Positions 6,959 to 48,728 are shown, counted from the stretch's first letter. The stretch is DNA of 64,000 nt from an uncultured Chloroflexia bacterium (GCA_963810095.1 CAWEMM010000006.1:1312001-1376000); one strand, 5' to 3'. The notes: generated by a model from the letters alone, not told the origin. A program made the numbers and translations.

Positions 6959-6979
6959 ACTTCTCTCAGAATCCTCGGG

Positions 6980-8127: not shown

Positions 8128-8262
8128 GAAAAGCTATCTCTCCCTACACGACCGCCCAACTTCGCGCGATACGATCACCATCCCCAGAGCCATTCTACCA
8201 CAACGGGTAGTCCTGACAAGTGATCTCAGACTCAGATTGCGGGGCCGCGGTCTTGGAGAAAC

Positions 8263-8289
8263 AAAACCCCCGGCGCTGGGCCGGGGGTC
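8263..8289 (-). terminator. Intrinsic terminator after cold-shock gene
   Basis: ACCCCCGG-CCAGCG-CCGGGGGT followed by TTTGTTT on minus strand. Confidence 0.75.
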
Positions 8290-8326
8290 AAGTGGGGCGC
8301 TGGTGAACTCGCGCCCGAGGGGCGAC

Positions 8327-8533
8327 TTACGCAGGCGTCACTGAGACGGCCTGGGGACCCTTCGGCGTATCTTCGACGATAAACCGAACCCGTTCGCCGG
8401 CGTCGAGGTTGCGGAAACCCTCGCCCAGGATGTTGGAATAATGAACGAAGACGTCCTTATCGCCACCATCCGGCGAGATGAAACCGTAGCCCTTGCTCCG
8501 GCTGAACCACTTGACAACACCCGTGCTCTCCAT
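8327..8533 (-). CDS. csp: Cold-shock protein
   Basis: GVVKWF, KGYGFI (RNP1), DVFVHY (RNP2), KGPQA; AAGGAGG RBS. Confidence 0.95.
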
Positions 8534-8713
8534 TAGAAAGTGCCTCCTTGGAGTAAAAGAAAACTTGTGGCCGTGACCCGCCTCCTTGCGATCCGGCAGG
8601 GGAGCGCCTCTGTGCCCATTTAAGCAAAAGCCACCGGGGCAGACGTACGCACCGGTGACTGGTGACCATCCTACTCCCTGACAGACTGCCGGAAAACCCT
8701 CACGGCTGGGACA

Positions 8714-8742
8714 ATCCTACCACTCGTAACCCCAGAAGTCAA
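8714..8742 (-). promoter_or_regulatory. Sigma70-type promoter for csp, giving a ~175 nt 5' UTR
   Basis: TTGACT-17 nt-TAGGAT with extended TG. Confidence 0.6.
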
Positions 8743-8796
8743 ATCAGAATGCGCAATATATTATGCAAAGCGTAGAGTCTTGATAAGTAAGTGACA

Positions 8797-8834
8797 CAAA
8801 AAACGGGCGACCGCCAGCCCGGCTGATCGCCCGT
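8797..8834 (-). terminator. Intrinsic terminator
   Basis: ACGGGCGA...TCGCCCGT stem followed by T run on minus strand. Confidence 0.7.
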
Positions 8835-8853
8835 GCAGCACCTGCAACTGATG

Positions 8854-9543
8854 TCAGTTCGGCAGTAGCGTGCCGCTGAAGCCGAATTGCGCGCCCTCTG
8901 GCCACTCCTTGCTGCCCGTCATCCAGGTCAGCAGCGCATTCTCGCGGTTCAGCAGCGCCATCTCCCGTCGCAGCATCTGTGTAACAGACGCCGAGCCGAG
9001 CAGTTCCTGCTTCTCCTTATTGTCGATCTGCATGGTCACGGCCGCCAAATATCCGATTTGTTCTGCGCCCGTGGGGATCTCCTCGATCTGAATCTGCAGC
9101 CCAGCCGCCTCGGCGATCAACTCCACGTAACGCTCCACCCGGTCGCGAACGACCTGCGCCCGCGCCAGCACCTGCTCCGGATCGTCCGGGTCGGCCATGG
9201 GCAGCGTCAGCACCTGGCCGCGCAAATAGGGTTGGTCGCGCAGCAGCCGTCGGATGCGGAACCGCTCGACCCCCACCGTCACGATGTTCATCGTGCCGTT
9301 GCCCAGATGCGTGCTCTCGATGATACGCGCGACCGTGCCGACGGTATACGGCTCGGCCTCGTCGCCCGCTTCCTGCCCGCGCTTGATGAGGACCACGCCA
9401 AACGGCAAGTCCTGCGCCAGGCAGTGCCGGATCATCAGGCGGTAGCGCTCTTCGAAAATATGCAGGGGCAGCACCTGCCCGGGAAACAGCACGGTATTGA
9501 GCGGGAAGAGCGGCATCTCGACCGCTTCGATCATCTCGTCCAT
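8854..9543 (-). CDS. Lon peptidase N-terminal (substrate-binding) domain protein
   Basis: PLFPLNTVLFPG..LPLHIFEERYR; no ATPase or protease domain. Confidence 0.9.
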   Translation of the reverse strand: MDEMIEAVEMPLFPLNTVLFPGQVLPLHIFEERYRLMIRHCLAQDLPFGVVLIKRGQEAGDEAEPYTVGTVARIIESTHLGNGTMNIVTVGVERFRIRRLLRDQPYLRGQVLTLPMADPDDPEQVLARAQVVRDRVERYVELIAEAAGLQIQIEEIPTGAEQIGYLAAVTMQIDNKEKQELLGSASVTQMLRREMALLNRENALLTWMTGSKEWPEGAQFGFSGTLLPN

Positions 9544-9623
9544 GGTTTTCGTCCTCGTGCAAAGGAACGGGCGGACCCATAAAACGGTTCCAAATCAGCC
9601 GCCCATCGAGGCCACTATATAAC

Positions 9624-9661
9624 AAAAACGGGAAGCAGCCCAACACGCGCTGCTCCCCGTT
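9624..9661 (-). terminator. Intrinsic terminator after CRP-family gene
   Basis: AACGGG..GCAGC / GCTGC..CCCGTT stem followed by T run. Confidence 0.6.
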
Positions 9662-9684
9662 GCGACATCTGAGTTGGTAGGGCC

Positions 9685-10350
9685 CTAGTCCAGGGCGCCG
9701 GCCGCCAGCCGGAGGCCGGGCAAGTCACGGAGCTCGATCTTGCGATACCCGAGCTCGACCAGCCCTTCATCTTTAAAGCTGCGCAGAATGGCGCTGATGG
9801 TTTCGCGATAGGTACCCAGCATATCGGCCAGGGCCTGGTGGCTGGTGCCGCGAATCGCCTTCCCCCCGTTGGCCAGCTCGAGCAGCAGGCCGGCCAGTCG
9901 CTCCGGCAGCCGCTTGTAGGCCACTTCTTCCATGCGATTCTCGACCTGCGCCAACCGCTGGCCGACCGTCTGCAACAGCCCCCAGCTCAGCACGGGGTAG
10001 CGCAGCGCCAGCGTCTGCGCCTGGGGCTGGGGCACGGCCCACAGGATACAATCGGTCAGGGCCACGGCACGCACGCACGGATCGACCGCGCCGAGTAGTG
10101 CACCCTCGCCGAACATCGATCCGGGACCGAGGGTCGCGATCGCCAGCCGGCGGCCGTTGGGTCCCTCGCGGATCAACTGTACCCGACCCTTCATCAAAGT
10201 GTAAAGGTTCTTTCCCAATTGCTCGGGATCTGCGACGTGCTGTCCCGCACGAAACGACTGCGCGCTGATTGCTTGCTTGAACTCTGGGTCGTCCTCACGA
10301 AGCTCGATCAGTATCTCCGGCAATGACCTCTGCTTCCCACGATGAACCAT
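9685..10350 (-). CDS. Crp/Fnr family transcriptional regulator (LdrP/SdrP-like)
   Basis: LGPGSMFGE cyclic-nucleotide-binding fold; HTH SHQALADMLGTYRETIS. Confidence 0.9.
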   Translation of the reverse strand: MVHRGKQRSLPEILIELREDDPEFKQAISAQSFRAGQHVADPEQLGKNLYTLMKGRVQLIREGPNGRRLAIATLGPGSMFGEGALLGAVDPCVRAVALTDCILWAVPQPQAQTLALRYPVLSWGLLQTVGQRLAQVENRMEEVAYKRLPERLAGLLLELANGGKAIRGTSHQALADMLGTYRETISAILRSFKDEGLVELGYRKIELRDLPGLRLAAGALD

Positions 10351-10412
10351 GTGTAACCTTCCTTCCTTCCTCTGCCTACAACTCAATACGTTTACCCATA
10401 CAACTGTAAGAA

Positions 10413-10441
10413 ACTATACTACAGAAGATCGCCCACGTCAA
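10413..10441 (-). promoter_or_regulatory. Sigma70-type promoter for the CRP-family gene
   Basis: TTGACG-17 nt-TATAGT. Confidence 0.65.
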
Positions 10442-10474
10442 CGGTTTGTCGAACTCTTAATGTAACCTTAAGCC

Positions 10475-11486
10475 TTACCCGCCATAATCCTCTCGTTCGC
10501 GGCGGATGCGGAGGATCTGGCTGCCTTCTGCAGTGGGGGCCCCGGATATCAACGCCACGATGTGGTTAACGCCGCTGCGGGCATTTTCGCCCAGGAATAT
10601 GCCCGGCACCTGGGTTCGCAGCTCGGGCTGGACGTTGAAGATCCGCCCGCCAAAGGCAAATAGCGGCCTCGGAGCCGGCATGGCCTGAACCGCCCGGGCC
10701 ATGTCCACCAGTCCCGGGAGCGTGTTAGCAGTCGTGGCAGCCATCACGATCATGGCTGGCCGCAAGCGCTCCATCTCTTCGACAAACTGTTCCACCGGGA
10801 CGTTTTGGCCCAAGTAGATCGTGTTAACATTACGGCGGCGCAGCATCAAATGGATCAGCAACAGCCCTAATTCGTGCCAATCCCCCGGTCCGCAGCCCAG
10901 CACGACGAGCGGTCCGCTGTGCGCCTGGGGCGCTGCGTTAATGATCGCGTCCAGCTTGCGCCGAAGATAGTTGCTGGCAAAGTGCTCCGCGGCGGTCGTC
11001 ATCCGGCCTTCGTGCCACAGGTCTCCCACCTGCATCATCGCCGGGGTCAGAACCTGCTCGGCCGTGCTCTCGAGCCCGTAAATTGCAAACGCTTCCTCCA
11101 GCGCTTGGTCCGCAGCCGCTTCATCGTACCGGATTAGCGCGTCGAGCAGGTGCTCCCGCGCCTCCCGGGGTCCGCCGGACTCGCTGCTGCGCCGCTCGCT
11201 CGGACCGCTGTCTGCGGGCCGCCGGTGGGCGAACAGGTTGATCGCCTGGCTGATGCTCATGCCCTCGTCGACACGAGCCCGCAACCACCGCAAGGTAGCG
11301 ATGTCGCTGGCCGAATACAGGCGATATCCACTGTCGGTGCGGCCCGGCGACGAGCGCGCCATAACGCCGCTCCCAAGCGCGGAGCGTGGCTGCAGAGATC
11401 CCGGTCGCCTCGACGACTGCCTTCATGTTGTAGATTGGTTCGTTATCCATCTCGTGATACGGCTCAAGTGCTGAAGATTGGCCCAT
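10475..11486 (-). CDS. MerR-family B12-binding regulator, CarH/LitR-like, copy 1 (frame break ~11350)
   Basis: [10 protein letters not shown]...GYRLYS HTH; W-x9-EH ([12 protein letters not shown]); DWHELG. Confidence 0.88.
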
Positions 11487-11690: not shown

Positions 11691-12654
11691 TCAGTTGAGT
11701 CCGTTCACCAGGTCACGTGCAGTAAAGGCAATCTCGGCGCCTTCGAAGCGTTCGGCCAGCTCGGGGTGTGCGGTGAAGGCCCGGCCGCCGAATACCAGGT
11801 GCGGCTTGGGCTCGGGCAAGTCGCGGACGAGCCCGATAAACCTCTTCCAGCGCGTCCACGCTTTCGCGGGTCGCCGCCGACAGGCACAACATGTCCGGCT
11901 TCAGCTTGCGCACTTCGCGGCAGCAGGTGCTCGGCCGGCACATTTTGACCCAGGTAAATGACGCGCCAGCCGTGGCGCCGCAGGCTCAACGAAACGAGGA
12001 GGATGCCCACGTCATGCCATTCATGCGGACCCGATCCTGTGATGGCGAGCGGGCCCGTGAGCGGCTGTGGGTAGGCATGGAAGAGCGCAGTCAGCCGGCG
12101 CCGCAGGAATGCGGTGGCGAAGTGTTCCTGCACGATGCTGGCCTCGCCGCGGTGCCAGCGGTCGCCAATTTCGACCAGCGTCGGGGTGATGATCTCCTCC
12201 GCGACCACGTCGACGGGGTAGAGCGCAAAGGCTTCGCCCAGCACCGCTTCGGCATGCGGCTCCTGAAACAGGATCAGCGTTTCCACCAGCTCTTCGACGA
12301 TCGTCTCCGTGCCGCGCACGTTCTCGGACGGCCCGACCTGCTGCGCCGCACGCTCGAAGTCCAGCTCGGGCTCTTCTCCGGCACGGTGGCGGATCTCCAG
12401 CAGGGCCACGGCCCGGCTGATCGACACGCCCGCATCGACCTGGTTCTTGAGCCAGCGCAAGCGTGGCGATGTCGCGCTCGGAGTAGAGGCGGTAGCCGCC
12501 ATCGCTGCGCCCGGGCGAAAGCACGCCATACCGTCGCTCCCAGCGCGCGCAGCGTTGCGGGCGCGATTCCGGTTTCCTGCACGACTGTCTTGATCGTGTA
12601 GACCGGGGTATCGTCGTACCCGTTCAAGCGAGGTTCTTCAGCCATAGCGCTCAT
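11691..12654 (-). CDS. MerR-family B12-binding regulator, CarH/LitR-like, copy 2 (several frame breaks)
   Basis: YTIKTVVQETGIAPATLRA, GGYRLYSERDI, W-x9-EH (WHRGEASIVQEH), EWHDVG, YLGQNVP. Confidence 0.85.
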
Positions 12655-12689: not shown

Positions 12690-13473
12690 CTAGGCGAGGG
12701 TGGCTGACTCCAACCCGGCAACGATCTGTTCTGCAGCGGCCACGAGCGTCGGCGCACCGTCAAACACGGCCAGCCCGTGCTGGTCCGCCGCCAGCGCCTC
12801 GGCCGTGAAAGGCAGCGCGCCCAGCAAGGGCACGCCTCCCGAGTGGCTCCGCACGAACTCCTCGTCCTGAACGCTGCGCACCTTGTTCGCGACCAGGAAG
12901 ATGCGCGGCACCCCAATCTCGGACGCGAGGTAGCGGATCTGCTCGGCCGTGCCCAGGCTGCGCAGACCCGGCTCGACCACGATCACGAACGCGTCGACCG
13001 AGCCGGCGGTGCCCCGCCCGAGGTGCTCGATGCCGGCCTCCATGTCCAGGATCAGCGTCTGGTCCTTCTGGAGGAGCAAGTGCGTCACGAGCGCCTTCAA
13101 CAGCGCATTCTCAGGGCACAGGCAGCCCGCACCGCCGGTGCGAACGGTGCCCAAACGCAGCAGCCGCACACCCCGGTGGGTGATGCTCAAGTTCTCCGGG
13201 ATATCGTCGACCTTCGGATTGAGCTTGAACCAGCCGCCCACGGTGCCCGGCTGCGCGCCGGTCCGCTCATAGATCAGGTCGTCCATTTCGGCGATCGGCT
13301 TGAGCCCGGCGTCCATTTCGGCAGACAGCCCGAAGGCGAGGCCCAGGTTCCCAGCCGGGTCGGCGTCGATGGCGATGACGTTCTGACCAGTTGCGCGTGT
13401 ACACGTATGAAAGCAGCGCAGTGAGCGTGGTCTTGCCCACGCCCCCCTTGCCCGTGACTGCAATCTTTGGCAT
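12690..13473 (-). CDS. cooC: CooC/AcsF-type nickel-insertion ATPase (frame break ~13395)
   Basis: KIAVTGKGGVGKTT, IDADP, GAGCLCPEN, DMEAGIEHLGRGT. Confidence 0.88.
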
Positions 13474-14033: not shown

Positions 14034-16861
14034 TTGACTACGATCCTGCCCACCGCCCCGACCGCACCTGTCACGCCTGCCGAGGACGACTGGCACTTTC
14101 AGAGCGCGGCCGAGACTGCCGCCAGGCTGCAGACCGACCCGGCCGCGGGCTTGAGCGCCGCCGAGGCGGCCGCACGCCTTGCACGCTACGGGCCGAACGA
14201 GCTGATCGAGCGCGGCGGCAAGCGGCCCTGGCAGATCCTGCTGGCGCAGTTCACCAGCAAGCTCGTGCTCATCCTCATCGTCGCCGCCGTGGTCTCGGCC
14301 GTCGTCGGCGACTTCAAGGATGCCATCGCCATCCTCGCCATCGTCGATCCTGAACGCCGTGCTCGGCTTCGTCCAGGAGTACCGGGCCGAACAGGCCATG
14401 GCCGCGCTTCGAAAACTGGCCGTGCCGAACGTGCGCGTGCGCCGCGTCGGCCAGGTCATGGATATCTCCGCGCGCGACCTCGTGCCCGGCGACATCGTGC
14501 TGGTCGAGGCAGGCAACCTGCTCCCGGCCGATGGCCGCCTCGTCGAAGCGGCCAACTTGCGCATCCAGGAAGCGATGCTGACCGGCGAGTCAGAGCCCGT
14601 CGAGAAGATCACGGCAGCGCTGCCCGCTTCGTCGGCTGCGGCCGCGCTGGGCGACCGGCGCAACATGGCCTTCATGGGCACCACCGTCACGTACGGCCGC
14701 GGGGCCCTCGCGATGACCTCGACCGGCATGGGCACCGAGCTGGGCCACGTCGCCGAAATGCTGCAGGAAGTGGACGGCGGCCAGACGCCGCTGCAACGCC
14801 GCCTCGACCAGCTCGGCCGCGCGCTGGCGATTGCCGCGGGCGCGATGGTCGTCATCGTGTTCGGCATGGGCCTGCTCATCGGCGAGGACTGGCGGCTGAT
14901 GCTCATGACCGCGATCAGCATGGCCGTCGCCGTCGTGCCCGAGGGGCTGCCCGCGGTGGTCACGATCGCACTGGCGCTCGGCGCGCAGCGCATGCTCAAG
15001 CGCCAGGCGCTCATCCGCAAGCTGCCTGCGGTCGAGACGCTTGGCTCGGTGACCGTCATCTGCTCGGACAAGACCGGCACGCTGACCGAGAACCGGATGA
15101 CCGTCACCATCCTCGACCTGGCCGGCCACCGGCTCGACCTCACCGAGGAGATCCGCCATCGCGAGCCGGTCGTCGTGACCGCCGACCCGAGCGCCGACAT
15201 CGTGCGCACGCCAGCCTTCGCTCGCGCTGCTGCTGATGGGCGGCGCGCTGGCAACGACGCCGCGCTCCAGCCCGTCCGGCCAGCGAGGGCCAGTTCCACG
15301 CCGTCGGCGACCCGACCGAAGGCGCGATGGTCGTCGCCGCGGCCCGTTTCGGCCTGTGGAAAGACCGGCTGAAGCCGCCTACCCCCGCGTCGCCGAGCTG
15401 CCCTTCGACTCGGACCGCAAGCGCATGACGACGGTGCACCGGTGACCGATTGCGACGCATGGATCGGCGACTGTGCGACCTCGGCGACAGCAGCCACGTC
15501 GTGTTCGCCAAGGGCGCCGTCGACAGCCTGCTGGAGGTTGCGACCGGCGTGTGGGATGACGGGCGCAACGCGGCCGCTCGACGCGGCGTGGCGGGAACGC
15601 GTCGCCGCTGCCAACGAGGAACTGGCGAGCAAGGGCATGCGCGTGCTCGGCGTCGCTTTCCGACCCGGCGAACCCGGCGACCTGACGCGGCGAAGACGCT
15701 TCGCCCGACCTCGAGCGCAACCTGACCCTCGTCGGCCTGGTCGGCATGATCGATCCGCCGCGTGCCGAGGTCAAGGAGGCGGTGCGTCACGTGCCGGGCG
15801 GCCGGCATCCGGCCCGTGATGATCACGGGCGACCATCCGCTGACCGCCCGGCAGATCGCGCACGAGCTCGGCATCAGCGCGAACGGGCGGATCCTGACCG
15901 GGCAGGAACTGGCGCCGCATGTCCGTGCAGGACCTGGAAGGCGTGGTCGAGGACGTCTCGGTCTACGCCCGGGTGTCGCCCGAGCACAAGCTGAACATCG
16001 TGCAGGCGCTGCAGAACCGCGGCCACGTCGTCGCGATGACCGGCGACGGCGTCAACGACGCGCCGGCGCTCAAGCGGGCCGACATCGGCGTCGCGATGGG
16101 CATCACCGGCACGGACGTCTCGAAAGAAGCGTCCGAGATGGTGCTGCTGAACGACAACTTCACGACCATCGTCGCGGCGGTCGAAGAAGGCCGCGCCATC
16201 TACGACAACATCCGCAAGTTCATCCGCTTCTCGCTGGCGGGCAACCTGGGCAAGGTGTTCGTGGTGCTGGCCGGGCCGCTGCTGGGCATGCCGCTGCCGT
16301 TCGCGCCCTTCCAAATCCTGTGGATGAACCTCGTGACCGACGGCGTGCTCGGCCTGGGCATGAGCGTGGAGCCGGCCGAGCGCGGCGCCATGAAACGCCC
16401 GCCGCATCCGCCCGCCGAAGGCGTCTTCGCCCGGGGCCTGGGCCTGCAGATCACCTGGATGGGCCTCCTGATCGGCCTGGTCACGCTGGGCGTCGGCTTC
16501 TGGGCCTGGAGCACCGGGCAGGCCGCCTGGCAGACGATGATCCTCACCACCGTGATCTTCGCGCAGGTCGTGCAGGCCCACGTGGGCCGTTCGAGCCAGC
16601 GAATCGGTCTTCCGGATGAATCCGCTCTCGAACAGGCCGCTGCTGCTGGCCAGCCTGGCGATCGTCGCGCTGCAGCTCGTCGTCGTGATCTACGTCGAGC
16701 CACTGCACAGGCTCTTCGAGACCGTGCCGCTGACCGCGCAGCAGCTGGGCGTGACGGTCCTGGCGTCGCTGGTCATCCTCGTCGCCGGCGAGATCGAAAA
16801 GGCTCATTCGGCGGCGCGGCCGGTCGGGTTGAAGGAGGAAGAAGATGGAACAGACGCTTGA
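14034..16861 (+). CDS. Cation-translocating P-type ATPase, P2A Ca2+-type (at least 5 frame breaks; 3' end approximate)
   Basis: [65 protein letters not shown] spread over successive frames. Confidence 0.9.
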
Positions 16862-16918
16862 ACGTCAGCAAGCCCCGGACGAGCAGTGACCGTCGACATG
16901 CGCACCCGGCGCAACCCC

Positions 16919-17373
16919 ATGCACCAGGTGCTGGAAAGCGGGCGCTACCTCATCCTGATCGGCGTCCTCGTCAGCCTGGTCGCTTCGGCCGCCGCCTTCG
17001 TCTGGGGCGCGTACAAGACCGTGCTGCTCGTGGTGAAGATGGTCGCGGACCTCAAGGCCAAGGCCGTCGCGAACCGGCTTGATCGCGCTGATGGACAAGT
17101 TCCTGATCGCCGCCGGGCCTCTACATCTTTGCCGTCGGCATGTACGAGCTATTCATCGGCGACCTCGATGCTGCCGCCCTGGTTGGTGATGCACAACCTA
17201 CACCAGATCAAGAGGCCGCCTGAGCAGCATCGTGATCCTGCTGCTCGCGATGGTGTTTCTCGAGCATGTCATCGAGTGGCGGGACGCGCAGGCAGTGCTG
17301 CAGACGGGAATCGGCATTTGCCGTCATGATCGCAGCCCTGATCGGATTCAATCTGTTCGGCGAAAAGGATTGA
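16919..17373 (+). CDS. YqhA/UPF0114-like membrane protein (frame breaks; start uncertain)
   Basis: RYLILIGV..., MDKFLIA, GMYELFIG, PPWLVMHNL, VFLEHVI segments across frames. Confidence 0.65.
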
Positions 17374-17391
17374 TCCGGCCGGGCCGCCGCA

Positions 17392-18501
17392 TCAATCGTC
17401 GCGCACACCCTCTTCCACGTAACGCACCAGCTCGCTCACGCTCAGGTTTGTAATGCCCAGCTTGTCGAGCGTGCGGCCCGCGTCGCCAGTAGTCGGTGCG
17501 GTGCACGATGCAAGCCAGCCCGATGATCGCATCCATCCCGCGCACAGAGACCCCGTAACGCTGTCCCAACGCCGCAATCGGCACCAGGCTCATCGGGACG
17601 TCCTCGAAGATATAGCGATGGTTGAGCGTGGGTGGCGCCTGGATGCCGTAGTACCCCGGCTGGTTGTGGATCGCTTCGTTCAGGTTTTCCCCCGTCGCGT
17701 CGTACGCCATCTGCAGCCACTCCAGCGCAGTCTGGGCCCGGATGCCCAGCGCGGCCGCCACCGTGACGCGCTCGCGGTCGAGCACATCCAACACGTGTGA
17801 AACCGAAGGCGTGACCCCGTCGATGTAGAACTGAAAGTTGCCGTGCGTCGCCTCGATCCAGCCCGCGTTCAGCAGGGTCAGGGCCGGGTGGAAAATCGCG
17901 CCCATGTTGTCGAGGCTGGTCTTCAGCACGTTGCCCCCGTCGATGAACTGCGGATATGCCGGGCACAGGAGGTCGATGACCTGCCCGTGCGTTTCGCCGG
18001 CAAGGCGGCCAGGGGCACCGCCTCCTTGATGCGGAAGATGCGTGCCTGCGCCGGCCCGTCCGAACGGCTGGCATAGATGAACGTGCCTGCCTCGGCGATC
18101 GTCACGTCGGCCCGGCACCCCTGGTCGCGGAGCACCTTGGCGAACTCGATCGCGCCGCACGTGCGGCCCGGGTTGAGAATCAGCGTCTGGCCGTCCCGCA
18201 GGTGGGGGGCACAGCCGGCGGCCACCTCCCGGTGCGCGGACGAAGGCGTCACCACCATGATCACCTCGGCGCGTGACAGGGCTTCGCCGTAGTTCGAGGT
18301 AATGCCGGCAAGCCGGCCGAAGCCGGATGGACCCCCGTCCCCACATTCGAGGTCCAGCCCTCCGCGCTTGATGATCGGCGCGACCCGTTCCGGCGTGCGG
18401 TTGAACAGCATGGTGGGGAATCCCATCAGTGAGAGATGCGCCGCCATGGCCTTGCCGCCATGCCCGGCGCCGATCACCGTGTAACGCGTTTGTGTCTGCA
18501 T
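17392..18501 (-). CDS. NAD/NADP octopine/nopaline (opine) dehydrogenase family protein (frame breaks ~17990, ~17480)
   Basis: VIGAGHGGKAMAA Rossmann motif, LNPGRTCGA, LDNMGAIFHP, FYIDG, DRER, HRYIFEDVPMSL. Confidence 0.9.
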
Positions 18502-18613
18502 CTATCTGTCCTCCTACCCGGAGACATCGCCGACCACAGAGACGCCAGGACACGGGGTGGGTGGAGGCGTCTCAATCCGGGCGTCATTGTGTCTTTGTGT
18601 TGGAATCCATCGG

Positions 18614-20251
18614 TTAAGCAAGCGCTGACGCCGCCAGCCGTTCGCGTTCGCCAATCGACCGGCCGCTGGCCGGATCGACCGCAACGCACACGCCTCGGCC
18701 GTCGATACGCGTCGCCGTGGCGCCGCGGGCGAACGGGTTGTTTTTGAGCTGCGGCGCATCGAGGATGCCCGCCGTGACCGCCCCACTGAGCGTCGCCGGG
18801 TCGGTCAGTGGGTCTGTCACGTCCGGACCTGCCAGCCCACGGATCGCTTGGAGCAGCACCTCCGCTTCGGCGATCAGCTCGGCCTTGCGCTCCTGCACCC
18901 GCGGGTCTCGGGTCATGTCGGGCGCACCGCGCACGGCATTCTCAATAGCCCTGCGGGCAACCCGGCAAGCAGCAATGACGTCCTCGGCGGTAGCCGCATG
19001 GTGCGCCTCGGTGTGGCCCACCACGTGCACGACGTGGGGCTTGAGGGCCATTTGCAGGTAAGTGGCTGCGGCCAGGTGGCCGCGGGCCGCCTCGGGGTCC
19101 AGCGGGTGGCTCAGCAGGCCAAGCCGCACCTGTCGCCACACCCGAAACTCCGGGCCTAACGCCTCCACCATCTCGAGACAGGCCAACATCTTCGCCAGGT
19201 CCATCGCATCCGAAAGGCCGGGCGGGCTGTTGAACATGAGCTGTGCGATGTAATCGCGCACGCCGGCGGCCCGTGCGTTATAGGCCGACAGATACGCGCT
19301 CGCCACGAAAGTGACGTCGGAGGCATCGCGCATGCCCCAGTGGTGCGGCTCGTTGAGTTCCACCGGCAGCCCGCGCTCGCCGTACCAGCGCATGACGGCC
19401 TGGTGCTCGCGGATGGAACCCTCCAGGTCCCACGGCCCGCGGCCGTCCATCCGGTTGAACCAGAAGAGCGGAATGGCGCACCACACGTTGTTAATCGTGT
19501 CGAGATACATTTCGGCCAGGGGGATGAAATCGTCCGTGCCCGAGTACGTGCGCATGAGCGGATAATTGCCGCACCGGCTGGCCTCGAAGAGCGCCCGGTA
19601 GTCCTCGGGCGAACGCACCGGCACCCCGCCGGCGCCCCGCCGCCGCGGGTCCTGGCGCTCGGGGTGAAAGAAGTTCTCCTGCGCATCCTGGTCGACGCCG
19701 AGGGAGATCACGTCGAGCACGCGGGCCGCGGCGATCTGCGACACGCCGTCCAGCGTCGCCTCGAGCGTGGGGAGCCCGAAATGGTGTCGCAGCAGCGGAT
19801 ATGGCGCCTTGAACGCAATGCGTTCGACCAGGGTTTGGGGCGGCACGACCGGCGCCCCGTCGACCCGGCTGCCGCGCAGGTACGCCAGCACGTCCTCGGG
19901 GCTCTCCCAGCCGTCGAACACCGCGTCGAAGAAGGGCGCAAAGCGCCGGGCGGCTGCGCCCACGGGGGGGGTCCCCCCGAAGGCGAAGCGAACGCCGGCC
20001 AACCGCAGGTCGTCGGCCGCTTCCGCAAACTCGGCCAGCAAGCGCTCGCCGGTTTCCGCCGTCAGACGATAGGAAACCCCCACAAGCTCGGCGTCGTGTT
20101 GGCGCGCGGCCGCGAGGACGGCTTCGATGGGTGTGGCCGGGCCGAGGAAGAGAGTTTGCCACCCGGCCTGTTCGGCCAGCCGGAGAAAGTTCGACACGCC
20201 GGCGACGTGGACGCACTCGCCCAGCGCAGCGGCAACGACGAGGTGTTGCAT
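18614..20251 (-). CDS. Cobalamin-binding domain fused to a mutase-like catalytic domain, function unknown
   Basis: N-terminal B12 Rossmann domain (LGECVHVAG...FLGP...VGVSY) followed by ~400 aa domain (RHHFG, DVISLG, RTYSGT, ELNEPHHWGMRD, PHVVHVVG). Confidence 0.8.
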   Translation of the reverse strand: MQHLVVAAALGECVHVAGVSNFLRLAEQAGWQTLFLGPATPIEAVLAAARQHDAELVGVSYRLTAETGERLLAEFAEAADDLRLAGVRFAFGGTPPVGAAARRFAPFFDAVFDGWESPEDVLAYLRGSRVDGAPVVPPQTLVERIAFKAPYPLLRHHFGLPTLEATLDGVSQIAAARVLDVISLGVDQDAQENFFHPERQDPRRRGAGGVPVRSPEDYRALFEASRCGNYPLMRTYSGTDDFIPLAEMYLDTINNVWCAIPLFWFNRMDGRGPWDLEGSIREHQAVMRWYGERGLPVELNEPHHWGMRDASDVTFVASAYLSAYNARAAGVRDYIAQLMFNSPPGLSDAMDLAKMLACLEMVEALGPEFRVWRQVRLGLLSHPLDPEAARGHLAAATYLQMALKPHVVHVVGHTEAHHAATAEDVIAACRVARRAIENAVRGAPDMTRDPRVQERKAELIAEAEVLLQAIRGLAGPDVTDPLTDPATLSGAVTAGILDAPQLKNNPFARGATATRIDGRGVCVAVDPASGRSIGERERLAASALA

Positions 20252-20387
20252 TGGAAACCCCCCTGGCGGACGGGAAAAGAAACCCGGCTGCCGGCCTTGG
20301 GGGCTGCGGACGGACAACCGGGACGACTTGCTATATTCGAGCAGCGCGGCTGCCTAAGGGCAAGCCCACTCATTCTGTAGGGTCGCA

Positions 20388-20494
20388 TCCTTCGACTGCG
20401 GCACGCCAGCTGCGCTGGTGCCTCCGCTCAGGATGCCTGCGCTTTAGCATCCTGAGCGGAGGGCGGTCCGCAGGACCGACCGCAGTCGAAGGAT
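20388..20494. repeat. Nested inverted repeat (REP/MITE-like)
   Basis: TCCTTCGACTGCGG...CCGCAGTCGAAGGA outer arms; CCTCCGCTCAGGATGC...GCATCCTGAGCGGAGG inner arms. Confidence 0.8.
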
Positions 20495-20544
20495 AACAAT
20501 CCTGACAATCAGTTCGATCCGTTCAATCAGTGTCCCATTTCAGG

Positions 20545-21240
20545 TCAGATGCGCTCGAATCGTGCGGCTTCGAGCACGAACACGGTCGCGCCATACATCG
20601 GCATGCCCGACTCGACCGGGTTCGCCTGCGCCCGCTGCCGCACGTTGGCGTCGATGATGCGGAGAACGTCGTCCACCTGCGGCTGCTCCACGCCGACCAA
20701 CAGGGTGACGTTGCCGCGGCGGAAGAAGCCGCCCGCCGTGTTCATGCGGGTCACGCGGTAGCCTGCCGCGATCAATCCTCGTGTGACGGGCTCGGCATCG
20801 TCGGCCGCGACGATGCTGACAACCATGTGCATTGGAACTCCTCCTGCGAGCGGCGCTGTGAAGGCCGGGGAATCCGCCCGATTGGCGTAGGGTTCGCCGC
20901 GCCCGAGTCGCTCGAATTGCGAAACAGGGATCATGAAGACCGTCGCGCCGCCAACGATGACTTCGAGAGGATAGGCCGGCGTCGACATCGAGAGGTGCGC
21001 AGGCTCTGCCGTCGAAGGAACGGGGTTGATGTAGCGTTTGCGCGTGTGGCACGTCTTGCGCACCACCTCCAGCACCCGCTCGACCTCGTCCTCCTGGACG
21101 CCGACCAGGCAGGTCACATTTCCGCGCGAAAGAAAGCCGCCCACCGTGTTAAGCCTGGTGACACGTACGCCGGCATTGTTGAGACGCCTCGTTAGGATAT
21201 CCGCGTCCTCGTTTTGGATGATGAGGAACATCAAATACAT
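20545..21240 (-). CDS. Tandem two-domain DarA/DUF970 c-di-AMP receptor-like protein
   Basis: Two full repeats: NTVGGFLSRGNVT...GGATVF and NTAGGFFRRGNVT...YGATVF. Confidence 0.85.
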   Translation of the reverse strand: MYLMFLIIQNEDADILTRRLNNAGVRVTRLNTVGGFLSRGNVTCLVGVQEDEVERVLEVVRKTCHTRKRYINPVPSTAEPAHLSMSTPAYPLEVIVGGATVFMIPVSQFERLGRGEPYANRADSPAFTAPLAGGVPMHMVVSIVAADDAEPVTRGLIAAGYRVTRMNTAGGFFRRGNVTLLVGVEQPQVDDVLRIIDANVRQRAQANPVESGMPMYGATVFVLEAARFERI

Positions 21241-21396
21241 GACGGTCTCCGAGGCAGGGGAAGTGCTTACTCTTGTACCCGCAACCGGGTCCTTTGTCAA
21301 GTGTGTCGAGACACGGCGGCTTAAGAAAGAGGACATGGGCTGCGTCATTGCGCGGGGCGCAGGCGTGTGCTATTCATAACAAACGTGAGAGGACCA

Positions 21397-23765: not shown

Positions 23766-24278
23766 GTGAAAGAAACGATCGTCCTGGTCATGCACGGAGT
23801 GCCGCCGCGCGACTTCCCGCCGCGGGAGATCGCCGAACTGATGGGGTTGCAGAACCGGCTGGAGCACGGCGCCGTGCCACCCCACGAGCGGCCGGCCGCA
23901 CAGGCCCGCTTCGAGGAGCTCGACGCAAAGGTACGGGGCTGGCCCAGACACGCCGAAAACGACACCTTCTACATGGCTTCACAGGAATTGGCCGCGGAGC
24001 TGGGGGCCGCGACAGGCCGCGAGGTCATCCTGGCCTTCAACGAGTTCTGCGCGCCCGCCGTGCCGGCCGCGCTGGATGCTGCGGCGGCAGGCGGGGCCGA
24101 GCGCGTCGTCGTGATCACGCCCATGCTCACCCCCGGCGGCGAGCACTCGGAGGTCGAGATTCCGGCCCAGGTGGACGAGGCACACGTCCGCCACCAGGGC
24201 GTCGAGTTCGCCTACGCCTGGCCCTATGCCATGGCCGACGTCGCGGCCTTCCTGGCCCGCCGGATCGAGCAGCTGTAA
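23766..24278 (+). CDS. cbiX: Sirohydrochlorin chelatase, short CbiX/SirB type
   Basis: VLVMHG, AFNEFCAP, TPMLTPGGEHSEVEIP. Confidence 0.75.
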   Translation: MKETIVLVMHGVPPRDFPPREIAELMGLQNRLEHGAVPPHERPAAQARFEELDAKVRGWPRHAENDTFYMASQELAAELGAATGREVILAFNEFCAPAVPAALDAAAAGGAERVVVITPMLTPGGEHSEVEIPAQVDEAHVRHQGVEFAYAWPYAMADVAAFLARRIEQL

Positions 24279-27240: not shown

Positions 27241-28671
27241 TCATGCTCCCCTGGGCCGCACGAAGAGCGTGGTGATCGCGGACAACACGAACATCACCCC
27301 GAACATCCCCATGAGCAGCACGTAGCCCGAGTGGTCGGCGATCGTTCCGCCGATATACGCCCCGATGGCACCGGCCCCGGCCCCGGCCAGGTTCTGCAGG
27401 CCCAGAAACTCCCCCGCGCGCTCCCGGGGGATGATGTCGGTGCCCAGCGCCCACGAAGCGACGTTGAACAGCGCGTAAGCCAGGCCGATCACGCCCGCGG
27501 CCACGTAGAGCAGCGGCAGGCTGCTGGCAAACACCATCAGCGCGACGCCGGCTGCCCCAATCAGGCTGCCCAGCGCGGTCAACAGCCGGCGGTCGAAACG
27601 GTCCGACAGCCAGCCGGCGCCCAGGCCGAAGAGGATGACGAAGCCCCCCAGGATCATCGGCAGCAGCCCCGCCAGCTCGACGGCCGCGTTCGCTCCGAGA
27701 TTGAGCTTCTCCTGGATGAAGTAAAGCAGGAAGACCGCGATGTTGTTGATGGCCACCAGCGCCGCGAGCCGCGAGATGATCCACCAGGTGAAGGCGCGGC
27801 TCTCGCGCACCGACTTGTCCAGGTGCACGGCCAGGCTGGCGAAGATGCCTACCACAACGGCCACGAACATCGCCAGCACGCCAATTAGGCCGAAGGTGAA
27901 GCGTGAAGCATTGCCGAGCAGCGCCACCAGCCACTTCACCACCTGGCCGAGCCCCAGGATGACCAGGACGAAGACCGCGGTCATCAGCAGGAGGCTGGCG
28001 AACGGGCGCCAGTCGAGCGCGCTAACACCGGTTTGCGGCCGCCGCTCACGAACGAGCATCGTCAGCCCGGCACAGGCGGCCATGACTGCGCAGGTGACCG
28101 CGATGGCCGCCGTCAGGTTCCCCTTGGCCACCATTGGCGCCACGACGAGCCCCACCACGGCCAGCGGCAGCGGGATTTCGAGCAGCATCTTGACGCCCGA
28201 GGTGATGCCGCGCTTCGCCTGGGGCACAACATCCGGAATCAGCCCCTGCGTGCCCGCCTGTGACATGTTATTGAAAACCATGGACAGCATGTACGCGCCG
28301 AAGAGGAAGGTGTAGCCCGTCATCCCCTGCAGCCCGGCGATCCGGGCGATGGCCAGGATCACGACGATCTCGACGAGCGTGCCGGCGAGGATGAACGGCC
28401 GCCGGCGCCCCCACCTGAGCCGGGAATGATCGCTGAGCAGGCCGAACATCGCTTGCGCCAGCAGCGCAAGCATCAGGCCCCACAGCCGGATCGTGCCGAA
28501 GTACGACCCCTTCTGGGCCTCGCCCACGAATCCCTGTACCAACAGCGGCACCAGCAGGCCGGCCAGCACCTGCGAGCGCAAGGTCAGGGAGAACCAGTTG
28601 ATGTTGATAGTGAGGTGGTCGTACCAGCGCACGTTCCGTGAAGCGGCGTTTGCTTCCAATGCGACGGCCAT
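27241..28671 (-). CDS. MFS transporter (possibly sugar/glycoside)
   Basis: GLLSDHSRLRWGRRRPF, GWLSDRFDRR; start at MAVALEAN. Confidence 0.85.
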   Translation of the reverse strand: MAVALEANAASRNVRWYDHLTININWFSLTLRSQVLAGLLVPLLVQGFVGEAQKGSYFGTIRLWGLMLALLAQAMFGLLSDHSRLRWGRRRPFILAGTLVEIVVILAIARIAGLQGMTGYTFLFGAYMLSMVFNNMSQAGTQGLIPDVVPQAKRGITSGVKMLLEIPLPLAVVGLVVAPMVAKGNLTAAIAVTCAVMAACAGLTMLVRERRPQTGVSALDWRPFASLLLMTAVFVLVILGLGQVVKWLVALLGNASRFTFGLIGVLAMFVAVVVGIFASLAVHLDKSVRESRAFTWWIISRLAALVAINNIAVFLLYFIQEKLNLGANAAVELAGLLPMILGGFVILFGLGAGWLSDRFDRRLLTALGSLIGAAGVALMVFASSLPLLYVAAGVIGLAYALFNVASWALGTDIIPRERAGEFLGLQNLAGAGAGAIGAYIGGTIADHSGYVLLMGMFGVMFVLSAITTLFVRPRGA

Positions 28672-28690
28672 CGGCTCGCCCCTTTCTGCG

Positions 28691-31211
28691 TTAACGGACC
28701 GGCGATGGCCGGCCCAGCCCCGCGCCGTCCCAGATCCTGTGCGCAGGCGTTGCGATGGAATGGTCTTCGTTAAGCACGAGGTACGGATAGGCAAAGGCTT
28801 CTGCTGCGTGCTGCAGCGCGTCCGGCGGCGCGTCGCCCTGGTACGGCGCGATGAGGAGGCTGAACTCCTGCACCCGCCCGTTGTACGAGGGCGCGTAAGA
28901 CTTGATGTGGTCAGACGCGGAGAAGGTGGTGGCCAACAAGTTCCCGAGCCCGGTGTCCGCAGTCGCGTACCGGTACTGCTTGCCCCAGTAGGTGCCAAAA
29001 GGATTCAGCCGGACGCGCAGCACACCCCCCTGCCGCCGGGTGCGCAGCGGGCAGAAGGCCATCCCACTGGCCGCATCCGCGCTTTGCGCCACCAGCAGGC
29101 CCCGCTCGCCGTCGGAAACGGCCACCCAGGCGTGCGTGATCTGGTTATTCGCGCTGTCCAACTCGTCATTCTCTGAGAAGCGGCCGTAATCCAGGCCGAA
29201 GTTGCTGACGTGGTCGCAGTAGTTGTGTTTCCACACCCGCAGCGCGCCGGCCGAGGGCCGCCCCGAGGGCCGGCGCAATCTCGCACGGCCAGACCTCCTG
29301 CCAGTTGCCGTCCCAGGCTTGCTGCAGTCGCTCGGCCTTCCCCCGGTCGTAGTCCCGGTCGGGCGTGCGGGGATAGACAACGCGCGTCGAAACGTAGATA
29401 AACGGCAGGTCTTGCGCCAGCAGGATTTCACGCTCGAATTCGGCCGTCAGGCCGCCCGGCAGGGCAACCGCGCCTTTCAGCCGCTTCACCCCCACCACGC
29501 CCAACGCCAACGACGCCGTCAGGGTCCAGCGTTCAACCTCGCACTGCTTGTTCCCGTAGGTCAGACCGCTGCGCAGAAAACGGCCCAGCCCCAATTCTGC
29601 CCCGCCAAACGTGATGCCGGCCACCTGCCCCTGTTCGTCGAAACGGACCTGCAGCGCATCATTTTGCAGGAAGCCGCTCCGCACGACGACCGGCACGGCC
29701 GGGTCGGCACTCGCCTCGCCGGGAACCAGCCTATAATCCTTGCGCTCGTTCGGCTCGAAGCGCTCCACAAACAACAGCTCGCGCCGCTCGCCGGTTGTCA
29801 ACACGGCCGAGGCCACCTCCGCTCCGTCGCCGCTCTGGACGAGGGGCCGCTCGGGCGCCGCGCCTCCCAGCGGCAGGCGTACGAGCCCGCGTGAAGGGTG
29901 CGCCCGGTAGGTGACCAGTCCGGTGGAATCCCCGCGCGCATAATCGACCAGGCTGAAGGAAGGGCGATCTTGTGCGCCGGCCGCGTTGTCCAGGCTTGCC
30001 GCGGCCAGCTCGAAAGCCCGGGCCGCCGCATCGACCGCGCACTGCACCAGGTCTCGGCCGATCCCCTCGCGCGTCACGTTCATGACGGGCGCAGCCATCC
30101 CGAAGTGCGTGGTCGACAGGATCTTCAGCCGTGCTTCGAACGATTCGTCGAGCAGCGCCTGCACCGCGGGGGGCGGATCGCCGTCAAGCAGCCGGTGCGT
30201 TTGAAGCTCCAGGATGCGGGCACGTTCGAGCCCGGTCCACAGCCGGTGGTTCGACCACTTCTCGGCCCAGCTCGAGTGCCCGTCGAAGCTCCCGTCCGCG
30301 GTGTCCTGGCCGATCACGATGCTGCCTACCGGCCCGTGCGCGTCAAGATACTCGCCGGGGGTTGCGAACCTTACATAATCCAGGTCCGCGACGTTCTCCA
30401 CCAGCCCCCGCAGCCCGCTTGCGGTCGAGAAGCGCCCCTTGAGCAAGGGCACGTCGAAACCCACCCAGAACTCGTCGTCCGCGTCCATGTCGATCAGCAA
30501 GAGGGCGTCCTGGGGCTTGTGCAGGCCCAGCTGCTGGCGCCGCATCTGCTTCACCCAGCGGCGGAGCGTCAGGTGATCGGCCAGGTCTCCGGTGTTGTAG
30601 CAAGGCAGCAGGGTCATGGTTTCGGCGATGCCGGGGTAGGTCAGCGTGAGCGGATTGTAGCGCTCGACAAACGTCAGGGGCCGCACGAAGTTGCTGAACC
30701 CGTTGAAGGGGAGGGCCGAGTAGTAGAGGCTGATCGTGTCGATGCCGCACGCAGGGTACAGCTTGAGGTGGATCGGGGTGTAAAGCATCTCCTGCGGCCT
30801 GACGACCGGCCGGAACCCCCCGCCGAACAGGTCGGCCAGCCCCGAGCCCTGCGAGTTGGTCACGCCCCGCCGGATCGCCGCCTCGAATTCCCTGGCCGTG
30901 TGTGCGTCGATCAGCCCGTTGTTATAGGACATCAGGTGCATTTCGTCGCCCGCGCCGCTCACCCGCCGCTGCAGCCCCCTGATGAGATCGGGGCAGTGGA
31001 CCGGCATGATGGTTTCCAGCGAGAAGAAATTCTCGAAGTCCCACGTCGCCCGCACAGGCACGCCCTCCGCGTTCAGCGCGTCGAGCGTCTGGATCAGGTG
31101 ACGGATGATGCGGATGTCCTTGCCGAAGCCGAGTTCGTCGGGGGTGTCGCCCCGGTAGGAATGATAGAAGCTGCCGTGGAAACGGAAGGCGAGGTAGATG
31201 TGAGGGGTCAA
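28691..31211 (-). CDS. Glycoside hydrolase-like protein, GH57/GH38-type N-terminal barrel (frame break ~29260)
   Basis: N-terminal FRFH..YH, VRPQEM, DMDAD, FATPGEY, DGHSSWA, HFG pattern followed by a beta-rich region; family call tentative. Confidence 0.55.
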
Positions 31212-31345
31212 CGCGTTTGCCTTTCGCCTGGGCTGGAGCGGCAAGGTTCCCTTGCCCTGCAGCCCGCTGAGTTAGTTCCACCCCGCGAGCTAGTTATTCT
31301 CGCACATCGCACTCCATCTCAATCAGACCCAATCCCCACCCACGC

Positions 31346-37080: not shown

Positions 37081-37127
37081 AACGGATCCTCCTCTATTTG
37101 CAGGACGGCCGTTGGGCCGCCCCTGAA

Positions 37128-48676: not shown

Positions 48677-48728
48677 GCTTCCCTCCGCGCCCGGCAGAGC
48701 ACTGGCGAAGGCCGGCCGGGCAAGGGCA

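Follow-up and report, generated by a model that had tools for sequence, protein, structure and literature searches.

A single-chain B12-dependent mutase-like enzyme paired with an opine dehydrogenase in an uncultured Chloroflexia bacterium

In the genome of an uncultured Chloroflexia bacterium, a gene for a putative B12-dependent mutase is followed on the same strand by a gene for an opine dehydrogenase, which raises the question of what reaction the two enzymes might carry out together. We analyzed this gene pair within a window of 64,000 nucleotides, the whole stretch of DNA under study, and compared it with relatives in other genomes. The initial annotation of the window had proposed that an opine is the substrate or the product of a radical rearrangement, and this remains plausible. 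CarH-like MerR/B12 genes are also found in the window.

The mutase and known B12 isomerases

The mutase-like gene (18614-20251, minus strand) is intact and encodes a single chain of 545 aa from its ATG. The maximal open reading frame begins at a TTG (20317), and homologues align over the full length of the 545-aa protein from the ATG; 120 of them, at 73-100% identity, covered 98-100% of the query. The AF2 model of the protein had a pLDDT of 93.6 and a pTM of 0.87. The sole Pfam match was PF02310, B12-binding (residues 5-112, E 9.7e-10), and together with structural matches to GlmS (1i9c_A, TM 0.76), 4jgi_B (Z 16.5) and 1y80 (Z 16.0) it defines a B12-binding Rossmann domain without a cap domain at residues about 1-130 (19862-20251, minus strand). 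No radical-SAM, methyltransferase, B12-binding_2 cap (PF02607) or DNA-binding domain was found in the Pfam scan, which bears out the original description of a 545-aa protein with an N-terminal B12 domain and neither radical-SAM nor methionine-synthase modules. Some database records call members of the family 'methionine synthase'.

We examined the cofactor-binding motif by profile alignment to solved B12 domains (4jgi, 2yxb and GlmS). The results showed that residues 12-18, E-C-V-H-V-A-G, contain the counterpart of DxHxxG (C13-V-H15-V-A-G18; 20198-20215, minus strand), with C13 on the Asp and H15 on the ligand His, as the initial annotation had read them. Hardly any variation is seen in the family alignment (A1) at H15, G18, S60-Y61-(R62)-L63 and G93. 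Of 160 family proteins that are at least 450 aa long, 143 carry CxHxxG, 10 carry DxHxxG and 7 carry neither; the ten with Asp form a distant clade of 600-aa proteins in which the motif is the canonical D-P-H-T-x-G. To our knowledge, Cys in place of Asp in this ligand triad has no characterised precedent. Judging from the sequence, cofactor binding or chemistry could differ from that of canonical B12 enzymes.

The remainder of the protein (residues about 136-541; 18629-19846, minus strand) was assigned by VIA-align and hhalign to the TIM-barrel type of GlmE and the aminomutases. GlmE was the best structural match (1cb7_B; Z 33.6, rmsd 2.8 A over 370 residues; Foldseek E 4.4e-14), followed by KamD (8t0v_A, Z 30.5), OraE (3kow_A, Z 27.7) and MCM (5req_A, Z 22.7), indicating an isomerase-type barrel and not a methyltransferase. 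Comparison with 6 canonical GlmE sequences by hhalign placed residues 149-527 on GlmE 58-432 with a probability of 96.7% (E 4.7e-10). Both hhalign and structure comparison were needed to recognize this homology, because the family sequence profile reached only B12 domains in the PDB and not GlmE. The window mutase had no match to PF06368 (Met_asp_mut_E) at E<=0.01, the best score for this model in the organism's own genome was 17.1 bits against a cut-off of 26.6, and no canonical GlmE was found in that genome. PF06368 is a precomputed label on some homologues of the mutase, and one relative (P0128) scores 27.5 bits.

In GlmE, we take Arg66, Arg100, Arg149 and Glu171 to be the residues that bind the carboxylate and amine groups of the substrate. 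The hhalign alignment pairs GlmE R66, R100, R149, E171 and Y177 with H157, Q191, Y236, C258 and W264 of the mutase, a pocket comparison made by profile alignment at 17% identity, with numbering checked on 1cb7_B. Because all the aligned substrate-binding residues differ, the substrate is probably not free glutamate bound in the GlmE way.

Glutamate mutase (GlmS/GlmE/GlmL, EC 5.4.99.1, Clostridium cochlearium; PDB 1cb7/1i9c/6h9e) is thus similar to the window mutase in both barrel and B12 domain, and as in GlmS the ligand His, an SxL-like element and the GG element of the B12 loop are kept. It differs in several respects: GlmS and GlmE are two subunits, whereas the window mutase is one chain that starts with its B12 domain; where DxHxxG has Asp, the window mutase has Cys; and the partner of glutamate mutase is methylaspartate ammonia-lyase instead of an opine dehydrogenase. 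The barrels of KamDE (1xrs, 8t0v) and OraSE (3kow) are nearly as similar as that of GlmE, but these enzymes have a different subunit architecture, and the dehydrogenases of their pathways act on diaminopentanoate or diaminohexanoate, whereas the window partner is of the opine-dehydrogenase family. In KamE and OraE, a Lys in the B12-binding domain holds PLP; residues 1-130 of the mutase contain no Lys that is invariant or nearly invariant in alignment A1.

Three distant relatives (P0161, P0163 and P0165) have the mutase fused to MutL/GlmL (PF13941, E 7e-76 to 2e-55), a family that takes its name from the glutamate mutase accessory protein. PF13941 had no match in the organism's own genome, which is 88.5% complete, and a PduO-type adenosyltransferase was found there (E 8e-47). 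Assignment to the AdoCbl isomerases is supported by these fusions, by the adenosyltransferase and by the DxHxxG motif of the distant members.

The opine dehydrogenase and its conservation beside the mutase

The dehydrogenase gene (17392-18501, minus strand; ATG at 18501) encodes a CENDH-type NAD(P) opine dehydrogenase of 369 aa assigned by PF02317, and a spacer of 112 bp (18502-18613, minus strand) separates it from the mutase gene. The distance and strand given by the initial annotation therefore stand; in the window, two indels, which that annotation does not mention, interrupt the frame of the gene. A tblastn search with the intact 368-aa orthologue of a relative (L034:2424-3527) recovered the window dehydrogenase as three pieces in frames -2/-1/-2, each 79-90% identical to that orthologue. 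The indels are of 1 base each and compensate each other: one base is lacking near 17981-17985 (about 17982), and there is one too many near 17477 (about 17475-17477). We checked both sites against near-identical short-read contigs, which come from other public metagenome runs at low depth (2-4x). An extra G behind 17982 was present in contigs of X1 (depth 3/3) and X4 (depth 4/4), and contigs of X2 were one base shorter at 17475 or 17477 (depth 4.3/7.43 and 3.13/12.6).

Because these contigs carry exactly both frame-restoring changes, the frame breaks are most likely assembly errors. A true pseudogene, marking a pathway that decays in its own genome, might be suspected from the two breaks and from a second mutase copy that lies in three pieces on contig C8. 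This is very improbable, given that the breaks compensate, that the pieces have stayed so similar to intact orthologues, that both corrections occur in independent contigs, that unrelated genes of the assembly such as a P-type ATPase (14320-17082) are split likewise, and that the genome scores as 88.5% complete with just 16 contigs.

The window pieces matched PF02317 (Octopine_DH, E 7.8e-48) and NAD_binding_2 (E 4.3e-8), and the GxGxxG glycines G11, G13 and G16 are invariant among the orthologues. An orthologue aligned with 1bg6, the structure of CENDH (N-(1-D-carboxyethyl)-L-norvaline dehydrogenase of Arthrobacter sp. 1C), over 351 residues (E 2.6e-78). Its H205, R296 and D301 fall on the His, Arg and Asp at CENDH 202/292/297, which we take to be the catalytic residues. 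This triad is invariant in 25 orthologues and is also present in the window pieces (...FHPAL..., ...NHRYIFED...), so that the window partner has it in common with CENDH. CENDH ends beta2 with Asp (W-D-I-D), whereas in the window family the first beta-alpha-beta unit is followed by an invariant N-R-T, a feature suggestive of NADP(H) as cofactor in place of the NADH used by CENDH. We know of no report of CENDH paired with a mutase. Complex prediction for mutase and dehydrogenase scored 0.00, which makes no call in either direction.

To describe the distribution of the pair, we surveyed the best 80 of 543 confirmed relatives, all from Chloroflexota, so that the following counts describe close relatives only. 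The dehydrogenase lay directly downstream on the same strand in 74 of the 80 loci and nearby in 2 more; in 2 others the contig ends at the mutase, and the last 2 have no dehydrogenase within at least 5.7 kb. Across 301 sampled Chloroflexota genomes, the mutase occurred in 23 and an orthologous dehydrogenase (at least 61% identity) in exactly the same 23, at adjacent coordinates. The mutase is distributed patchily in this sample and is mixed even within genera. No other conserved neighbour of the pair was found in the three reference loci tested. The family as a whole comprises 849 representatives at E<=1e-3, and a word-indexed search placed 7265 of its 8000 highest-ranked candidates at the same threshold. 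These findings are best explained if the mutase and dehydrogenase genes form one functional unit.

The pairing with pfam02317 is not new, having been in print since 2009. Zhang, Rodionov, Gelfand and Gladyshev then predicted a new family of B12-dependent proteins that always adjoins pfam02317, has a distant N-terminal B12-binding domain, is held by Chloroflexi as well as Clostridia and Thermotogae, and has Ddl or AsnB nearby in several organisms (PMC2667541, in its available text). The N-terminal B12 domain and the pfam02317 adjacency are the same here, and we identify the two families by this matching description; the available text of that study gives no catalytic-domain fold, active-site comparison, regulation or function (PMC2667541). 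In the literature searched, which did not extend to subscription journals, we found no characterised function or described pathway for the family. The statement in the initial annotation that no characterised pathway was known thus holds, with the qualification that the family and its neighbour had been predicted earlier. That annotation had also named three outcomes that would count against it, namely a pair not conserved across genomes, a catalytic domain of a known methyltransferase, and an enzyme already placed in a described pathway; we found a conserved pair, an isomerase barrel and no such pathway.

Third genes and the c-di-AMP context

The second copy of the pair on contig C8 of the same genome has an AsnB-like gene between mutase and dehydrogenase, and it is surrounded by genes for an Mrp antiporter, a Na/Ca exchanger and other transporters. 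An AsnB-like gene is added in 13 of the best 80 loci and is absent from the window. The one copy whose N-terminus was read begins M-S-A-I-A-G, without Cys2. In the best-hit lists, the two mutase copies did not separate into subgroups with and without AsnB. The relative P0128 has its mutase fused to an ATP-grasp domain, and a weak match to Peptidase_M15_3 (E 5e-4), below the Pfam cut-off, was obtained for relative P0131.

Upstream of the window mutase lies a gene for a tandem c-di-AMP receptor of the PstA/DarA-like type (20545-21348, minus strand; PF06153 CdAMP_rec, E 8.4e-50, in 2 stretches). Homologues of it stand beside the pair in 4 of the 80 loci (L034, L068, L065 and L070), and the gene belongs to the surroundings of the pair without being conserved with it. 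In 4 of the 80 best loci, the mutase leader contained the c-di-AMP riboswitch RF00379 (96-102 bits); one of the four is L034, whose pair is among those most closely related to the window's own. According to the available text of one report, c-di-AMP riboswitches commonly govern genes for osmotic shock and the cell wall, and aminomutases that make osmolyte precursors are among their targets (PMC9337991).

In the leader of the window mutase (20252-20544, minus strand; 293 nt), a chance hit to a miRNA was the sole Rfam match at E<=1. The leader contained neither RF00379 nor any other riboswitch, and it did not align with the c-di-AMP riboswitch leaders of L034 and L001. It folds stably (MFE -147 kcal/mol, z -6.43). 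We rejected this fold as a specific regulator, since it comes from a palindromic repeat dispersed through the organism's own genome: the leader has a single copy (about 20340-20500), and the 161-nt core of the repeat has 74 matches in that genome. No sigma-70-like promoter or minus-strand terminator was found at 17100-20700, and no terminator-like site was found in the spacer.

Possible functions of the pair

With middling confidence, we propose that the pair comprises an AdoCbl mutase and an NADP(H)-dependent opine dehydrogenase that catalyze successive steps on an amino or imino acid, possibly yielding a stress solute. The mutase would be a single-chain cobalamin-dependent radical isomerase that combines a B12 domain of the base-off/His-on type (His15) with a GlmE-like barrel. 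Homolysis of the Co-C bond of adenosylcobalamin would lead to H-abstraction from the substrate and then to a 1,2-rearrangement. The dehydrogenase may supply the mutase substrate, an N-(carboxyalkyl) amino acid formed when a 2-oxo acid and an amino acid are reductively condensed, or it may handle the mutase product; in a minority of relatives an amide-forming enzyme, AsnB-like or ATP-grasp, would join as a third. The pathway would then build a small amino or imino acid carrying a modification, most likely as a solute against (osmotic) stress, and in the relatives nearest to the window's pair its expression would be linked to c-di-AMP. The biosynthetic direction is suggested by the amide-forming enzyme that accompanies the pair in some relatives, and the link to stress by the RF00379 leaders, the c-di-AMP-receptor genes and the transporter neighbours on C8. 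The fold, the motif, the homology, the strict pairing and the contexts with riboswitch and receptor were observed; from them we infer the use of AdoCbl over another corrinoid, the order of steps, the opine intermediate and what the pathway does for the cell.

In fermentations, amino acids are rearranged by glutamate mutase and by the aminomutases for lysine and ornithine, and where pathways with an AdoCbl amino-acid mutase have been characterised, the mutase product passes to a dehydrogenase or a lyase. The pair might likewise be catabolic: the mutase would rearrange an amino acid or an imported imino acid, and the opine-dehydrogenase-family enzyme would then cleave the rearranged product oxidatively at its C-N bond, yielding a 2-oxo acid plus an amine and thereby feeding fermentation. 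We consider this unlikely, although the barrel is nearly as close to KamD and OraE as to GlmE, Clostridia and Thermotogae are among the holders listed in 2009 (PMC2667541, available text), and the patchy, accessory-like distribution suits an accessory degradative route no less than a solute pathway. The three reference loci have no conserved gene for a transporter, lyase, thiolase or further catabolic function next to the pair, the recurring third gene encodes an ATP-consuming amide synthetase (with the ATP-grasp fusion in addition), the B12 domain has no invariant Lys for PLP as in KamE/OraE, and the N-R-T motif would point to NADPH, a cofactor characteristic of biosynthetic reactions.

In some bacteria, enzymes of the AsnB type are responsible for amidating the precursors of peptidoglycan. 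Together with Ddl- or AsnB-like partners, the pair might accordingly modify an amino acid related to peptidoglycan, for example a D-amino or diamino acid. Cell-wall remodelling genes are also under c-di-AMP riboswitches in the available text on these elements (PMC9337991), D-Ala:D-Ala ligase genes are among the neighbours reported in 2009 (PMC2667541, available text), and the peptidase match of P0131 points the same way. A role in the cell envelope is nevertheless improbable, as this match lies under the Pfam threshold, the loci examined have no conserved mur, ddl or penicillin-binding gene next to the pair, and presence in only 23 of the 301 genomes would be odd for a wall component. That the protein performs no radical chemistry, being instead a methyltransferase or a corrinoid carrier of methyl groups, a sensor of B12 or light, or a user of Cys-x-His for another metal or cofactor, as the 'methionine synthase' names, the Cys without known precedent and the CarH-like genes of the window might suggest, is hardly credible in view of the missing methyltransferase, cap and DNA-binding domains, the 400-aa C-domain homologous to AdoCbl isomerase barrels, the GlmL/MutL fusions and the DxHxxG of distant members.

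Only about a dozen reaction types are known for adenosylcobalamin-dependent isomerases. This large and strongly conserved family probably catalyzes a B12 reaction not yet described, because it combines a GlmE-like barrel whose pocket has been rebuilt with a changed ligand triad and with an opine dehydrogenase as obligate partner. In its most specific form, the proposal is a new class of coenzyme-B12 isomerase that receives an opine, here an imino diacid with a secondary amine, from its obligate NADPH-dependent partner and performs a PLP-independent 1,2-shift of the carbon skeleton or of the N-substituent, with Cys-x-His tuning the chemistry. The resulting compound would be a new imino acid of the branched or beta type, to which the three-gene versions would add an amide. 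Under the control of c-di-AMP, it would act as a compatible solute in anaerobic lineages that include Chloroflexota and Bacillota. We regard this full version as doubtful.

For the window itself the practical consequence is more modest: the interruption of the dehydrogenase most likely arose in assembly, and the genome has two copies of the system. For the Anaerolineae and their relatives, the family represents a B12 requirement outside current metabolic annotation. If the product is a c-di-AMP-controlled stress solute, the pair would constitute a new osmolyte pathway. The function of bacterial CENDH-type opine dehydrogenases has been unclear since the 1990s, and the same reading, if true, would give these enzymes a physiological role.

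The mutase and its relation to glutamate mutase

The initial annotation had described a 545-aa protein with an N-terminal B12-binding domain, the motif E-C-V-H-V-A-G with Cys in place of Asp, and no radical-SAM motif. This description was correct, since it agreed with the intact ORF (18614-20251, minus strand), the Pfam result and the HMM alignments. PF02310 (B12-binding) was the sole Pfam domain recognised (residues 5-112, E 9.7e-10), with no cap, radical-SAM or methyltransferase domain, and the only NCBIfam match was a sub-threshold one to methylaspartate mutase subunit S. Alignment of the family profile with solved B12 proteins (4jgi, 2yxb and GlmS 1be1) placed Cys13 and His15, within residues 12-18, in the Asp and His columns of DxHxxG.

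We then compared the predicted structure with GlmE and the aminomutases, a check proposed at annotation. The AF2 model, built from an input alignment of 31 sequences, was confident (pLDDT 93.6, pTM 0.87). The top Foldseek match was Clostridium cochlearium GlmE (1cb7_B, E 4.4e-14), followed by ornithine 4,5-aminomutase, lysine 5,6-aminomutase and methylmalonyl-CoA mutases, and the N-terminal domain was matched by GlmS (TM 0.76). VIA-align gave Z 33.6 against GlmE (rmsd 2.8 Å over 370 residues, model 136-541 on GlmE 43-440), 30.5 against KamD, 27.7 against OraE and 22.7 against the methylmalonyl-CoA mutase 5req_A.

Six canonical GlmE genes from other Chloroflexota, found with PF06368 (8 of 401 genomes), were aligned as a reference. 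Profile-profile comparison with the mutase family gave a probability of 96.7% (E 4.7e-10, residues 149-527). With GlmE numbering checked against the 1cb7_B sequence, the residues that we take to bind glutamate, Arg66, Arg100, Arg149, Glu171 and Tyr177, corresponded to His157, Gln191, Tyr236, Cys258 and Trp264 in the family, which has invariant residues of its own (R155, S183, G209, N229, Y236, D269, E298, D312 and H409). Judged from these alignments, the mutase is homologous to GlmE but its pocket is rebuilt, and it is no glutamate mutase. The system is a variant of putative AdoCbl isomerase from the GlmE/aminomutase lineage.

The word-indexed search returned 7265 matches at E ≤ 1e-3 among the 8000 candidates sharing most words with the mutase, the best 120 being 73-100% identical to it. 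At E ≤ 1e-3 an exhaustive representative search gave 849 clusters, of which 208 reached E ≤ 1e-30, and the identity of full-length members went as low as 32%; near clusters in the Atlas were mainly Bacillota, Chloroflexota and Bacteroidota. Among 160 family proteins examined with a length of 450 aa or more, 143 carried CxHxxG, 10 carried canonical DxHxxG (a 600-aa clade with D-P-H-T-x-G or D-A-H-T-L-G) and 7 carried neither. One full-length relative, P0157 (549 aa, 32% identical), has G-D-P-K-Y-T-N-E with no His at the ligand position and could represent an offshoot that is B12-independent or His-off. Another, P0144 (528 aa), begins with about 140 residues resembling an opine dehydrogenase C-terminus (...NHRYIFEDVP...) and continues as mutase from residue 5, the gene order being reversed relative to Chloroflexota; its sequence would fit a genuine fusion of dehydrogenase and mutase or, alternatively, run-through in gene calling. 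Fusions to MutL/GlmL (PF13941) occurred in three relatives and to a glutathione-synthetase/RimK-type ATP-grasp in one. The source genome (88.5% complete) encodes a PduO-type adenosyltransferase, and neither MutL nor canonical GlmE was found in it.

Pairing with an opine-type dehydrogenase

The conservation of the pair was surveyed in the best 80 of 543 confirmed relatives, all Chloroflexota MAGs. The dehydrogenase lay directly downstream on the same strand in 74 loci and nearby in two (after an AsnB-like gene in L005, upstream in L050); the contig ended at the mutase in two, and the gene was absent within at least 5.7 kb in two. No further conserved neighbours were found in three reference loci. 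The mutase occurred in 23 of 301 sampled Chloroflexota genomes (21 of 244 high-quality ones). The dehydrogenase query matched 56 of the 301; matches of at least 61% identity fell in exactly those 23 genomes, at adjacent coordinates, and the other 33 held 28-39% paralogues and no mutase. These counts support obligate coupling in the proposed two-enzyme B12 pathway with an opine-type dehydrogenase, in which an opine may be the substrate of the mutase.

In 2009 Zhang et al. (PMC2667541) predicted a B12-dependent family of matching description, with a distant B12-binding domain at the N-terminus, always next to pfam02317 and in several organisms near Ddl or AsnB; it occurred in 11 bacteria from four phyla, Chloroflexi among them. 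Our searches for an opine or octopine dehydrogenase with a B12 mutase, with subscription journals outside their coverage, found nothing further. The system, predicted in 2009, has no characterisation in the literature that these searches covered.

A second, paralogous copy lies on contig C8 of the same genome (locus L089, about 6900-11100 of the locus, minus strand), in the order mutase (73% identical, in three pieces), AsnB-like gene and intact dehydrogenase. Its neighbours on the contig are Mrp antiporter, Na/Ca exchanger, CitMHS, SBF and CBS-SIS genes.

In the window, the dehydrogenase starts at ATG 18501, 112 bp past the mutase on the same strand as annotated, but 17392-18501 (minus strand) holds no single open frame. 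Locus L034 has an intact orthologue of 368 aa, which in tblastn matched the region in three pieces (frames -2/-1/-2; 79%, 90% and 81% identity). One base is missing at the first junction (about 17981-17985) and one is extra at the second (about 17477). Four public metagenome runs supplied near-identical contigs for comparison. X1 (depth 3 of 3) and X4 (4 of 4) carried an additional G behind 17982, and X2 contigs a one-base deletion at 17475 or 17477 (4.3 of 7.43 and 3.13 of 12.6); the differences, at low depths, were exactly the two frame-restoring changes. Other genes of this 16-contig assembly (88.5% completeness) are split as well, including the C8 mutase. A P-type cation ATPase (14320-17082, plus strand) appears as E1-E2_ATPase (14320-15372) and Hydrolase plus Cation_ATPase_C (15919-17082) pieces around an unassigned gap, a pattern that fits indel errors across the whole assembly; ORF pairs that overlap at 27241-31244 and 46385-50153 resemble it. 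Since short-read contigs restore the frame and other genes are split in the same assembly, the dehydrogenase is most likely intact in the organism and its breaks assembly errors.

The orthologue matched Arthrobacter CENDH (1bg6; E 2.6e-78, 351 residues) and kept the His, Arg and Asp of the catalytic CENDH positions 202, 292 and 297. In all 25 dehydrogenase orthologues these three residues were invariant, as was an N-R-T following beta2; the invariant N-R-T suggests NADP(H) as cofactor.

Genomic context and leads on function

Corrinoid-related genes are abundant in the window. A cobalamin riboswitch (RF00174, 38363-38495, minus strand, 43.6 bits) precedes unassigned ORFs, a PEP-CTERM protein (36508-37167, minus) and a 930-aa protein in which CbiQ is fused to two ABC ATPase domains (32185-34977, minus). 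This is probably an ECF-type operon for the uptake of cobalt or corrinoids under B12 regulation. Tandem MerR-HTH/B12-binding_2/B12-binding genes (10475-11362 and 11705-12529, both minus) resemble CarH-like light or B12 regulators; the B12 domain of the second is only partial, and this gene may be frame-broken. A CbiX-type chelatase domain (23766-24278, plus) and a weak, sub-threshold CobQ/CobB/MinD/ParA-type match (12690-13463, minus; 22.96 bits, cut-off 25.4) were also present.

Of the 80 best loci, 13 also contained an AsnB-like gene. Glutamine-dependent asparagine synthetases use Cys2 as nucleophile; the source-genome copy, the one whose N-terminus was read, starts M-S-A-I-A-G and therefore lacks Cys2.

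In an Rfam scan of all 80 best loci, four (L001, L002, L003 and L034) had a c-di-AMP riboswitch (RF00379, 96-102 bits), which lay 160-200 nt ahead of the mutase start. L034, among the closest relatives of the window pair, has a c-di-AMP-receptor gene further upstream; the window has one at 20545-21348 (PF06153, E 8.4e-50). Such a gene lay beside the pair in 4 of the 80 loci, as few as the riboswitch. Neither Rfam nor comparison with the relatives' riboswitch leaders detected this riboswitch in the window's 293-nt mutase leader, which instead contains one copy of a palindromic repeat dispersed through the genome. This repeat (about 135 bp, 20340-20500) folds into a hairpin of very high stability (leader MFE z -6.43) and takes the position that the riboswitch has in relatives such as L034. 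Its 74 matches, in both orientations and spread over no fewer than 8 of the genome's contigs, suggest a MITE/REP-like element.

PMC9337991 describes c-di-AMP riboswitches as off-switches of osmotic-shock and cell-wall genes, and as accompanying aminomutase genes for osmolyte precursors. The c-di-AMP contexts, with riboswitch and receptor gene limited to 4 of 80 loci apiece, together with the ion-transporter genes around the C8 copy, support, rather than prove, a role of the pathway in making a stress solute.
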